From Smithellaceae bacterium (GTDB taxonomy: Bacteria > Desulfobacterota > Syntrophia > Syntrophales > Smithellaceae), in contig JAQUVQ010000009.1 of the NCBI GenBank assembly GCA_028693285.1, positions 165 to 64,164 on the forward strand: a DNA stretch of 64,000 nucleotides. The letters run 5' to 3'. The notes under the pieces are model-generated. The model was not told the DNA's origin. It was given only the letters and a program-made list of their open reading frames with translations, and did no database searches. Positions 47,807 through 51,486 of the stretch are shown piece by piece. The translations under genes and the position numbers were made by a program. Numbering within the stretch: position 1 is the stretch's first letter; each line of letters opens with the position of its first letter.

Positions 47807-49570
47807 GTGCGCTTTGACGACAGCAAGATTGAAGAAATTAAAAGCAGGGTGGATATTGTCGAGCTTGCCTCCGAATATCTGACCCTGAAAAAGGCGGGCC
47901 GGAATTATCTGGGGCTTTGTCCCTTTCATCAGGAAAAGACGCCTTCGTTCACCGTCAGCCGCGAGAAACAGATTTTCTACTGTTTCGGCTGCGGGGAAGG
48001 CGGCAATGTCATTACGCTGCTGATGAAAATGGCCAACAAGAGTTTTCCCGAGGCCATTCAATACCTGGCGGAAAAAACAGGCGTCCTGTTGCCGGTGCGG
48101 ACCTTCGGCCGGGACAGTCGAGAAAAGGATTCCCTGCACGATGAGATTCTTCGCCTGAATGCTAGGGCGGCGCAGTTCTTTGCCCGTCAGCTCTCCTCGC
48201 CGGGGGGCAGGACGGCCCGCGACTATCTGCAGAAAAGAGCCGTCACCGAAGACATTGTCCGGCAATTCCGCATGGGATACGCTCCGGATGCCTGGCGCTC
48301 CCTGGCGGATGATATCGAAGGCGGCGGTTTGTCCCTGAAAATGGCTGAACAGGCCGGTCTGGTCATCGCCGGAAAAGAGGGGGGGGGCTATGACCGGTTT
48401 CGCGGCCGCCTGATGTTCCCCATTGAAAATCCTTTCGGTGAAATCGTCGCCTTTGGCGGACGGATCCTCGGAGAGGGGGAACCCAAATATCTCAACTCGC
48501 CGGAATCGCCGGTTTACAGCAAAGGGAAAAATTTATATGGACTCAACAAGGCCAAAGAGGCGATCCGCCGCAAGGGTTTTTGCCTCATGGTGGAAGGGTA
48601 TTTTGACGTAATCTCCCTGTGGAATGCGGGGGTGTGCAATGTCGTGGCCACGCTGGGCACGGCGCTGACCCGCGATCATCTGGAGCTGCTCAGGCGCTAC
48701 ACGCAGGACGTTGTCGCCCTGTTTGATCCGGACACGGCCGGACGCAAGGCGCTGGACCGGTCGCTGGAGCTTTTTCTGGGGGCCAATATGCGCGCCCGTG
48801 CTTTAATTTTGCCCGACGGCTGCGACCCGGATGATTTTGTAAAAAAACACGGACCGGCCCGGCTGGATGAGCTGATCGCCCTTGCGCCGTCCATCAGCGA
48901 TTATTATATTGACACTGTTCTGGGAAACGGCAGGACATTTGAAGAAAACCGCGATCTGGTAAGAGAAGCGTTGGAATTTGCGGGGAAAATCAACAACGAA
49001 ATCGAAAAGAATCTCTTTATCAAGCGCCTCGCGGAAAAATCGGGCGTCGATCAGGTGTTGTTGAAGCGGGAGGCCCGCCGTAAAGCGGCGCCCGCCCCGT
49101 CCGGTAAAAAAGCATCTGCCCCGACCGCGATGAATCTCCTGGAGCTGAATCTGATCCGGCTCATGCTGGAGTATCCGCAGAGAGCGCTCCTGGTGGAGCA
49201 GGAAAACATACTGGACTGCTTTCTGGAGAACGTATTGAAAGACCTGGGAACGAAGATCCTTGAGACTTATAAACTGCTGGGGTACGTGGACATCAACGTT
49301 CTGCTGCCCTCGGATGAAGACAAACCGCTGCGGGAGCGCCTTTATAAAATGAGCGTGGAAGAGCCTCCGGCCGAGGACGACCAGGTGGAGCGAAATTTTG
49401 CCGATAACATGCGAAGAATCCGTGAAAAATGGTATAAGGAACAAAAGCGTCAGGTTCAGCACAAACTGCGGCAGGCGCAGGAAGGCGGGAATCAGGATCT
49501 CATCCGGGAACTGACCTTCCAGAAACAGAACCTGATGAAGGAAGAAAATAAATACGTGAACAAATCATAA
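47807..49570 (+). CDS. dnaG: DNA primase
   Basis: Zinc finger [11 protein letters not shown]...[12 protein letters not shown] polymerase core and TOPRIM (VEGYFDV). GTG start. Confidence 0.93.
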
Positions 49571-49587: not shown

Positions 49588-51333
49588 ATGGCGAAAGAAA
49601 TACAGTCCGATGAATTTAAAAAACTGTTATCCCTGGGGGAAGAAAAGGGTTTTTTAACCTATGATGACGTGAATGACATGCTGCCGGCAGATTTGAATTC
49701 CTCGGAGCAAATCGATGATATTATCATGCTGTTTGGAGAAAAAAACATCGACATCATTGATATGGAGCAGGGGGAAAAACTGGTGGTGAAAAAGCCGGTG
49801 GAAGACGCCCTGCCGTCCAAACTCCCGGAAGCTCTCGCGCTGGTTCCCGGCGTGGGAAAAACCGGCGATCCGGTCAAGATGTACTTGCGGGAAATGGGGC
49901 TGGTTTCGCTCCTGAGCCGTGAAGGCGAAGTCGAGATCGCCAAGAAAATCGAAGAGGGCGCCCGCGAAACCATGTGGGCCATTTTCAGCCTGACCGTTTC
50001 CATCGACGAAGTGCTCAGCATCGGCGAAAAGCTGGAATCCGGGGAAATCCGCGTCAAAAATGTGGTGGACAACATCGAAGATGAAGAAGGATTCATGGAG
50101 GAGGATGATCATAAAGACAGAGTGCTCCGGCTGATCGCCCGAATCCGTCTTTTCAACGACCGCAATAAAGTCCTGCGCGAGAAGCTCAAATCCAAGACCA
50201 TGAAACCCAAGCAAAGGGAAGCATTGAGCGCGGAGCTGGCGAAAAACACGAAGAACATCATCACGCTTTGCCGGAAAATCCGCTTCAGCAAGAAGCAGAT
50301 GCACCGTTTTATCGCAAGGCTGAAAGTCTTCGCGGACGAGATTGAACGCTCCGAACGCGTGATCAATCATTTCAAGAAGGAGTCGGGCCTGACGATTACG
50401 CAAATGGAAAAGGCCTGGTCCCGAATGAAGAAATCCAAACAGGACGAGCGGCAGGCGGCCAGGTCCGCCAAGGTCTCCATCGAGTGGCTGCACAGAAGCC
50501 AGGCGTCCGTCACGGAGGCGCAAAAACGGCTGCGGCGCATTGCCAAGGACGTGGGAATTCCAACCGCCACGCTCAAGACGGTGGTCTATTCCATAGAAGA
50601 CGGCGAAGCCAAGGCCGAAATCGCCAAACGGAAGCTGGTCGAAGCCAACCTGCGGCTGGTGGTCAGCATTGCCAAGAAATATACCAATCGCGGCCTGCAG
50701 TTTCTGGACCTGATTCAGGAAGGCAATATCGGGCTCATGAAAGCGGTGGATAAATTCGAATACCAGCGGGGCTACAAGTTTTCCACCTATGCAACCTGGT
50801 GGATCCGTCAGGCCATCACGCGCGCCATTGCCGACCAGGCCCGCACCATTCGCATTCCGGTCCACATGATTGAAACGATCAACAAACTGATCCGGACGTC
50901 GCGCTACCTTGTTCAGGAACTGGGGCGCGAACCGACGCCGGAGGAAATCGCCAACAAAATGGAGTATCCGCTGGAAAAAGTGCGCAAGGTGCTCAAAATC
51001 GCCAAGGAGCCGATTTCCCTGGAAACGCCGATCGGCGAGGAGGAGGACAGTCATCTTGGGGACTTCATCGAGGACAAAAAGATCATGTCTCCTTCGGAGG
51101 CCACCATCAGCATGGATCTGGCGGACCAGACGCGCAAAATCCTGTCCACGCTGACGCCGCGGGAAGAAAAGGTCCTGCGGATGCGCTTCGGCATCAGTGA
51201 TCGGCTGGGTACGGCGGTCATGGGGGAAGTGTCGGTGGAGGAAACCGTGATCGCCGAGATGGAAGAGCCGGAAGTCGTGGAAGAAGAGCCGAAGAAAGCA
51301 AAGCATTCTTCCCGCAAGCGTCCGGCAAAATAA
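49588..51333 (+). CDS. rpoD: RNA polymerase sigma factor RpoD homolog with non-canonical C-terminus (region 4.2 absent)
   Basis: Regions 1.1-4.1 are intact ([28 protein letters not shown]..., [23 protein letters not shown]). The last 45 aa ([12 protein letters not shown]...KRPAK) do not resemble the region 4.2 HTH. Confidence 0.85.
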
Positions 51334-51335
51334 TA

Positions 51336-51364
51336 TTGACAAGCACCGGGATTGGGTATATTTC
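51336..51364 (+). promoter_or_regulatory. candidate promoter for the tRNA gene (TTGACA then TATATT/TATTTC)
   Basis: TTGACAagcaccgggattgggTATATTtc lies immediately after the rpoD stop. Spacer is 15-17 nt depending on which -10 register is used. Confidence 0.4.
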
Positions 51365-51410
51365 AACGCACCTTGATGCCGGTTAAATCCGCGCAAATGC
51401 TCAAAAAGGC

Positions 51411-51486
51411 GGGCCTATAGCTCAATTGGTAGAGCCACCGGCTCATAACCGGTAGGTCCCTGGTTCGATTCCAGGTGGGCCCACCA
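51411..51486 (+). tRNA. tRNA with CAU anticodon (elongator Met, or Ile2 if lysidinylated), CCA encoded
   Basis: Manual cloverleaf: acceptor gggccta/tgggccc, D arm gctc-aattggta-gagc, anticodon arm accgg-cuCAUaa-ccggt, T arm cctgg-ttcgatt-ccagg, then A-CCA. Confidence 0.9.

Follow-up and report, generated by a model that had tools for sequence, protein, structure and literature searches.

In the textbook view, one primary sigma polypeptide reads both the -10 and the -35 element. The rpoD gene described here leads one to ask how the -35 element is read when that polypeptide is without the region 4.2 helix-turn-helix, whose recognition helix (TRERIRQIE) contacts the -35 hexamer. The gene lies in a stretch of 64,000 nucleotides (the window, meaning the whole stretch that was analysed; positions 165 to 64,164 of contig JAQUVQ010000009.1, assembly GCA_028693285.1) from a Smithellaceae bacterium of the class Syntrophia. 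We suggest that -35 recognition is probably supplied in trans, and that the housekeeping sigma factor of the Syntrophia generally consists of two polypeptides made from two unlinked genes: RpoD itself and a 94-amino-acid protein, here called the C-piece, which carries an RpoD-type region 4.2 behind a cysteine-containing head and which we infer to bind RNA polymerase. A sigma factor without a -35 reader, -35 boxes that are nevertheless phased to the -10 element, and an orphan region 4.2 that is under extreme constraint in precisely the lineages whose RpoD copy has decayed are, taken together, most simply explained by a sigma factor in two pieces.

RpoD is without the region 4.2 helix-turn-helix

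RpoD is 581 residues long, with its stop codon at 51331-51333. Its Pfam matches above cut-off are to regions 1.1, 1.2, 2, and 3, each of them complete (the non-essential region falls below threshold), and it matches the NCBIfam RpoD equivalog model PRK05658 with 612 bits (cut-off 555) over model positions 20-586 of 631. The Sigma70_r4 profile is matched over positions 2-18 of 50 only (residues 519-535), scoring 23.0 bits where the cut-off is 24.1, and the 45-residue tail, which begins with S537 at 51196, matched no family when searched alone against Pfam. The protein has the regions 1.1-3, the equivalog match and the status of sole copy in the canonical arrangement, with dnaG directly upstream, that characterise a group 1 sigma factor; a complete region 4 (4.1 and 4.2) on the same polypeptide it does not have. 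An earlier note on the window had claimed that the protein is a primary sigma factor through region 4.1 without the region 4.2 helix-turn-helix, and that no region 4.2 lies in the other frames before the tRNA gene downstream. The partial Sigma70_r4 match and the unmatched tail bear out the first claim. The second agrees with a search of all six frames of the genome, in which Sigma70_r4 matched nothing downstream of rpoD.

The gene end is genuine

The earlier note had also raised the possibility of a rearrangement or assembly junction, or of a decaying paralogue beside an intact rpoD. The assembly is indeed in 95 contigs (2.68 Mb, rated 99.45% complete, with rpoD on contig C14), and rpoD is followed closely by a tRNA gene; both would suit such a reading. 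The relatives of this bacterium argue strongly against it. In most members of the genus RpoD is alike over its full length, the tail not excepted, with 86-94% identity; the same gene end is present in the single-contig genomes G006 and G008, in the two-contig G016 and in the closed genome G031, and other families of the order have it likewise. The 901 bases around the end of rpoD occur verbatim in about 20 public runs (digesters and wastewater, 2017-2025), and in contigs assembled from two DNA runs and two metatranscriptomes the sequence continues across position 51196 with zero differences and zero joints. Contigs from other samples also continue through the tRNA-Met gene. No second intact rpoD was found in this 99.45%-complete genome: region 2 of sigma-70 occurs in two genes only, rpoD and a 304-amino-acid rpoH-like gene on contig C42, which leaves one candidate sigma factor for the promoters described below. 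Within the genus, the ratio of non-synonymous to synonymous substitution rates (dN/dS) of the rpoD core is 0.015, which indicates strong purifying selection. We regard the mis-join, junction, and decaying-paralogue readings as refuted by the closed relatives and the independent contigs, and give them practically no credence.

A candidate for a second rpoD in a relative, a 578-amino-acid frame of G017 with a region-4-like stretch, was rejected, as it corresponds to a 535-amino-acid protein (L071 1185-2792) that is not a sigma factor and has a sigma-4-like helix-turn-helix embedded mid-protein (WTLEELGDREKITRERVRQIEEK). Additional sigma factors of about 490 residues with an intact region 4 are present in G048, G033, and G212, that of G033 on a 3.1-kb contig.

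The tail is a degenerate region 4.2

The tail had been described in the earlier note as an unrelated acidic-then-basic sequence. It is acidic and then basic, with 11 Asp or Glu among its first 33 residues and a basic end (..SRKRAAK); it is not unrelated. Fragments of region 4.2 persist in the RpoD tails of other Syntrophales families, as can be seen in G035 (TLTDTRERARQIEANTLGKFRNPSRKR; longer extract RTLTDTRERARQIEANTLGKFRNPSRKR), G031 (INRERNKQSETNTVRKLRNPSRRK), G118 (LGVTVERTKQIEANALKRLRNPSRRR), and G030 (ATIRRAKQIEKNVLKKLRGTPRKR). Against a profile of the canonical RpoD C-terminus built from 82 sequences, the RpoDs of the genus Smithella score 59-67 bits, most of them aligned only as far as region 4.1, and those of the other families 70-102 bits, a graded decay. 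Because these families show graded intermediates, we conclude that the tail is a decayed homologue of region 4.2. It is probably now a disordered acidic and basic stretch.

Within the genus, the tail has a dN/dS of 0.31, about 20 times that of the core at non-synonymous sites, and its length, acidic middle, and basic end are all kept. Such lineage-specific decay fits relaxed selection after the function had been replaced. The region 4.1 helix immediately before the tail is identical in every Syntrophales RpoD that we read, and its unchanged state suggests that a partner is still present, plausibly the helix-turn-helix of the C-piece.

The -35 boxes are still in use

That -35 recognition has simply been lost, another possibility offered by the earlier note, finds no support in the promoters of this genome, and we reject it. 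We scanned 2131 upstream regions, taking as anchor a -10-like TAnnnT hexamer with at most one mismatch to TATAAT. TTGACA-like hexamers number 48 at a spacer of 17 base pairs (bp), 12 each at 16 and 18 bp, and about 5 elsewhere (Poisson p ~1e-30), and the same scan of gene interiors gives no TTGACA peak at spacer 17. In a motif-free count, exact TTGACA is the top hexamer at spacer 17, with 30 occurrences against 0.43 expected (~70-fold). A TGn extended -10 signal was looked for in the upstream regions, and there is none. We conclude that the -35 boxes are still in use. The phasing at 17 bp argues against a freely binding protein as their reader and for one that is held on the polymerase, in the way that the flap holds sigma-4. 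Sigma-4 docks at the flap-tip helix of RpoB, and in this bacterium the beta-flap tip helix is intact (EEKLLRAIFGEKA).

An orphan region 4.2 on a small protein

The six-frame search with Sigma70_r4 gave three matches in the genome: the rpoH-like gene, a weak one on contig C85, and C64:22935-23033. The last corresponds to profile positions 18-50, exactly the part that rpoD is without. The genome does hold an orphan region 4 reading frame of the kind for which the earlier note had suggested a search, and its proposal that -35 recognition is supplied in trans gains support from it. The frame encodes the C-piece, which scores 49.4 bits against PF04545 (Sigma70_r4; cut-off 24.1), again over profile positions 18-50 only, and which covers positions 590-628 of the 631 in PRK05658. 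The two proteins are complementary, RpoD and the C-piece taking up 20-586 and 590-628 of PRK05658, and 2-18 and 18-50 of Sigma70_r4, respectively. Aligned with hhalign, C-piece residues 43-87 match canonical region 4.2 as far as the C-terminal LKDF with a probability of 99.7%.

Conservation of the small protein is concentrated in two places. Across 83 homologues, R58, E59, R60, R62, and Q63, which align with the recognition helix TRERIRQIE, are invariant. So are C7, C18, C23, and C35 of the head, which form the pattern C7-x10-C18-x4-C23-x11-C35; C40, added to this pattern in Syntrophia, is nearly so. The head may serve to bind a metal, to dock or to act as a redox switch. Its family is narrow: a set of 1.84 billion proteins yields 20 clusters at 50% identity, and the confident matches are all small proteins. 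Membership of the WhiB family finds no support, as Pfam (E up to 1) returns only Sigma70_r4 and weak helix-turn-helix families. At NCBI, the homologues are annotated as 'sigma factor-like helix-turn-helix DNA-binding protein' (Smithella sp. or Syntrophales bacterium) or as hypothetical.

The promoter of the C-piece gene itself (L004 1437-1465) combines a perfect TTGACA with a weak -10 element, TACCTT, the spacer being 17 bp. In most loci across the order the promoter is conserved, with a perfect TTGACA, a spacer of 16-18 bp, and a -10 element that is mostly TAAGTT (L006-L067). With a promoter of this type the gene would be expressed only where -35 boxes are read, and its own product may thus be needed for its expression.

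The break falls exactly at the boundary between regions 4.1 and 4.2, each piece has some 45 extra residues, and the RpoD tail starts with Ser. One could imagine from this that the pieces are rejoined by a split intein, or by RNA trans-splicing, to give a normal full-length RpoD. We find this hardly conceivable. The end of the head has no terminal Asn before a Ser, Thr or Cys nucleophile, no intein or HINT family was matched by Pfam in either piece, and with about 90 extra residues in all the two pieces have too little sequence for a HINT fold. The tail, moreover, is poorly conserved and homologous to region 4.2, and the RNA contigs contain no joints. We have rejected the split intein for want of HINT blocks and of an Asn-plus-nucleophile junction.

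The neighbours of the C-piece gene that are conserved more broadly are an enoyl-CoA hydratase gene and an IHF gene, which are convergent with it. Immediately upstream, and in the same orientation as the C-piece gene, lie a glutaredoxin-like gene and a gene resembling the catalytic subunit of ferredoxin-thioredoxin reductase (L002 718-1301). This thiol-redox pair is found only in the family of this bacterium and in one other sampled family, and we have discarded it as a conserved functional link to the C-piece because of that limitation. Larger Smithella genomes have a second, shorter C-piece paralogue (~88 aligned residues, 78-83% identical) that ends in ...DVLKDFATLQ.

Co-occurrence of the C-piece with the decay of RpoD

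Of 151 sampled Syntrophia genomes, 147 encode the C-piece (one order, 23 families, 57 genera), closed genomes included. In a sample of the phylum (401 genomes from 256 genera), the cysteine head was confined to the 14 Syntrophia genomes and two genomes (G170 and G212) from a single other genus, whose heads are 43-45% identical to those of Syntrophia. That genus has a 578-amino-acid RpoD without region 4.2, and its tail (RLRFGITEGAEGIIERVEDEDGETEGVITFDPRALIRARMSARKRRKSSVE) is likewise acidic and then basic. We note that the genomes of this second lineage are about 1.9 Mb in size and that their C-piece is a diverged protein of 98 amino acids in which the fifth Cys is replaced by Val; G212 additionally encodes a sigma factor, in a 497-amino-acid frame, with an intact region 4.

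For the reciprocal test we used a peptide that spans the intact junction between regions 4.1 and 4.2 (E <= 1e-12). The junction is intact in 385 of the 401 genomes. The remaining 16 are 12 Syntrophia genomes, G170, and three assemblies whose rpoD has no 3' end or is truncated where a contig stops. Three head-positive genomes pass the threshold: G031, whose tail is partly decayed, and G048 and G212, each of which has an extra sigma factor of about 490 residues. The association between the head and loss of the junction (Fisher p ~1e-19) comes effectively from two lineages only. This co-occurrence across the phylum is a further point in favour of recognition in trans.

A proposed housekeeping sigma factor in two pieces

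In the mechanism that we propose, RpoD (the N-piece) would provide core binding, -10 recognition, and melting through regions 1.1-3, together with the region 4.1 helix. The C-piece would dock on the beta-flap tip, on the retained 4.1 helix of RpoD, or on both, and so rebuild a sigma-4 domain, from which it would read a TTGACA that lies, as is usual, 17 bp from the -10 element. The head with its cysteines would probably bind metal and either stabilise or regulate the assembly. As to its history, the 3' end of rpoD may have been duplicated and fused to a cysteine head, with the C-piece coming first; the resident region 4.2 would then have become dispensable and have decayed independently in different families. 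The graded, family-specific decay of the tail suggests this order, in which the C-piece arose before region 4.2 was lost.

Several observations weigh against the proposal. Association of the C-piece with RNA polymerase or with RpoD is a prediction. The two genes are unlinked, being on contigs C14 and C64 here and 0.5 to 4.6 Mb apart in closed genomes. Profile-profile comparison of the 45-residue head with region 4.1 detects no similarity. AlphaFold2 models of the C-piece alone are of low confidence (predicted local distance difference test scores of 57 and 54, from 18 and 83 sequences), which would be compatible with a protein that folds only in a complex or with metal. The RpoD tail remains under some constraint, as its dN/dS and its conserved length and basic end indicate, and it may thus serve a purpose that a two-piece model leaves unexplained. 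Transcription of both genes, which speaks for the proposal, is seen in metatranscriptome contigs of similar depth, 66-80 over the 3' end of rpoD and 73-146 over the C-piece locus, both free of differences; the reservation is that such libraries can contain DNA and that contig depth is a poor measure of expression. Lastly, no C-piece is detectable in four of the 151 Syntrophia genomes, and congeners of these four do carry it. We suggest that these are probably assembly gaps. In several runs the assembly contigs end or branch within the region 4.2 coding stretch of the C-piece (L004 1655-1706), because 31-mers there are shared with the rpoD of other organisms, and sporadic loss of the gene from metagenome-assembled genomes is to be expected where assembly graphs break in this way.

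Some of these points would also suit a different role for the 94-amino-acid protein, that of an independent regulator or sigma-4 mimic (a repressor or competitor at -35 boxes, say, or a protein that activates some promoters only) and not a general subunit, with RpoD either doing without -35 reading or relying on another factor. The predicted nature of the physical association and the unlinked genes leave room for it, as do the additional small paralogues in larger Smithella genomes. Phage-like contigs encode diverged relatives, for which regulation or appropriation is a plausible role, and the thiol-redox pair beside the gene in Smithellaceae hints at a conditional one. We consider this alternative unlikely. 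The strict phasing of TTGACA at 17 bp needs a reader whose distance from sigma region 2 is fixed, as it would be on the flap, and the only other region 4 proteins of the genome are the rpoH-like sigma factor and one weak match. The small protein is near-universal, near-invariant, and tightly co-occurring with the decay of RpoD in two lineages, and region 4.1 of RpoD is retained unchanged. A two-piece housekeeping sigma factor is the reading that we prefer.

Comparison with other systems

The closest parallels are the split sigma factors: SigO-RsoA of Bacillus subtilis, gp55 with gp33 of T4, gp33 with gp34 of SPO1, and Sig7-Sig8 of Tn916 (bioRxiv 10.64898/2026.10.01.756105). As in these, the region 2 or -10 part and the flap, -35 or region 4 part would be held by two separately encoded polypeptides, which jointly would have the functions of regions 2 and 4. 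Those examples are alternative, phage or mobile-element sigma factors, whereas the Syntrophia split concerns the single housekeeping group 1 sigma factor of a whole class. The genes of known split sigma factors are usually adjacent. Adjacency or co-transcription, which is usual and not strictly defining, is absent in Syntrophia; moreover, the break lies inside sigma-4, between regions 4.1 and 4.2, and the larger piece still holds the fossil of the missing module. T4 gp33 binds the flap and does not read DNA, whereas the C-piece keeps all of the -35-contact residues.

Compared with Escherichia coli sigma-70 (RpoD) and with SigA, the Syntrophia system has the same dnaG-rpoD synteny, regions 1.1-4.1, and TTGACA-17-TATAAT architecture; it differs in that region 4.2 is off the RpoD polypeptide and on a separate 94-amino-acid protein. 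T4 AsiA and MotA and the actinobacterial WhiB-like (Wbl) iron-sulphur proteins such as WhiB7 act at sigma region 4 or the -35 position of the housekeeping holoenzyme. They share with the C-piece the character of a small protein (Cys-rich in the case of Wbl) at the position proposed for it. Unlike it, they bind an intact sigma-4, with no sequence relationship to the C-piece, which is itself the region 4.2 module. WhiB7 and SigA are the subject of PMC3905903.

Diverged relatives of the C-piece are encoded on phage-like IMG/VR contigs (L178 and L179). In these proteins of about 100 amino acids the same head pattern (C..C....C.W...NC) is fused to a region-4.2-like helix-turn-helix. Identity to the Syntrophia head is 40-43%, and they differ in a degenerate helix-turn-helix (SGERIRKIEQK) and a phage-like context. 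Their existence implies that the module of cysteine head and region 4.2 circulates in phages too. The contigs also encode nuclease, SbcCD-like, RuvC-like, and lysozyme-like genes. A bolder version of our proposal can be put forward only tentatively: a class-wide two-polypeptide sigma factor whose detachable -35 reader is a metal- or redox-sensitive Cys4 mini-protein related to phage proteins, perhaps a domesticated phage device for appropriating sigma-4 that made region 4.2 dispensable, so that one 94-amino-acid protein, driving its own promoter by way of a perfect -35 and a weak -10 element, could tune all -35-dependent transcription. We think this rather doubtful as a whole.

A full-text search of the literature found no description of a primary sigma factor that is split or without region 4.2 in Syntrophales, and the Syntrophia system is a first candidate for a split housekeeping sigma factor. 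If the proposal is correct, a free-living bacterial class has split an essential sigma factor within domain 4 and entrusted -35 reading to a separate small protein, and assembly of sigma-4 in trans is possible on a cellular housekeeping holoenzyme. It would offer a natural system in which to study both the assembly of sigma-4 on the beta-flap and the global control of -35-dependent promoters. Current annotation would then mislabel both genes, the one as a full 'RpoD' and the other as a 'sigma factor-like HTH protein' or hypothetical. The Syntrophia are syntrophic degraders of fatty acids and alkanes and are central to methanogenic digesters.

Features of the window and related loci

Coordinates are collected in Table 1.

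Table 1. Location of rpoD and its neighbours in the window, and of the C-piece and related genes elsewhere
Feature	Location	Strand	Basis or remark
dnaG (primase)	47807..49570	+	587-amino-acid open reading frame; putative, from primase-like translation and synteny with rpoD
rpoD (N-piece; regions 1.1, 1.2, 2, 3, and 4.1, without the region 4.2 helix-turn-helix)	49588..51333	+	Pfam, NCBIfam
Region 4.1 helix, kept (residues 519-536)	51142..51195	+	Sigma70_r4 profile positions 2-18 only
45-residue tail, decayed region 4.2 (residues 537-581)	51196..51330	+	No Pfam match; graded intermediates elsewhere
Candidate tRNA promoter, perfect TTGACA	51336..51341	+	Read from sequence; starts 3 nucleotides past the rpoD stop
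tRNA-Met (CAT)	51411..51486	+	ARAGORN; ordinary neighbour, not a junction marker
C-piece, 94-amino-acid open reading frame	C64:22812-23096 (same genome)		45-residue Cys head and RpoD-type region 4.2
Shorter C-piece paralogue	G016:C2:36103-36357 (L069); G008:C1:4525435-4525698 (L070)		Also in G021 and G007
RpoD region of the second lineage	G170:C1:202927-203511 (L170); G212:C5:11826-12410 (L173)		C-piece in L176/L177
Phage-like Cys-head proteins	L178 5983-6282; L179 3770-4090		IMG/VR contigs

The TTGACA at 51336 has a TATATT 15 nucleotides downstream (both within 51336-51364), an atypical and unusually short spacer, and lies about 50-70 nucleotides before tRNA-Met. A 580-amino-acid open frame on the minus strand (window 49654-51396) spans nearly all of rpoD; most likely it owes its existence to codon and guanine-cytosine composition and does not represent a gene.

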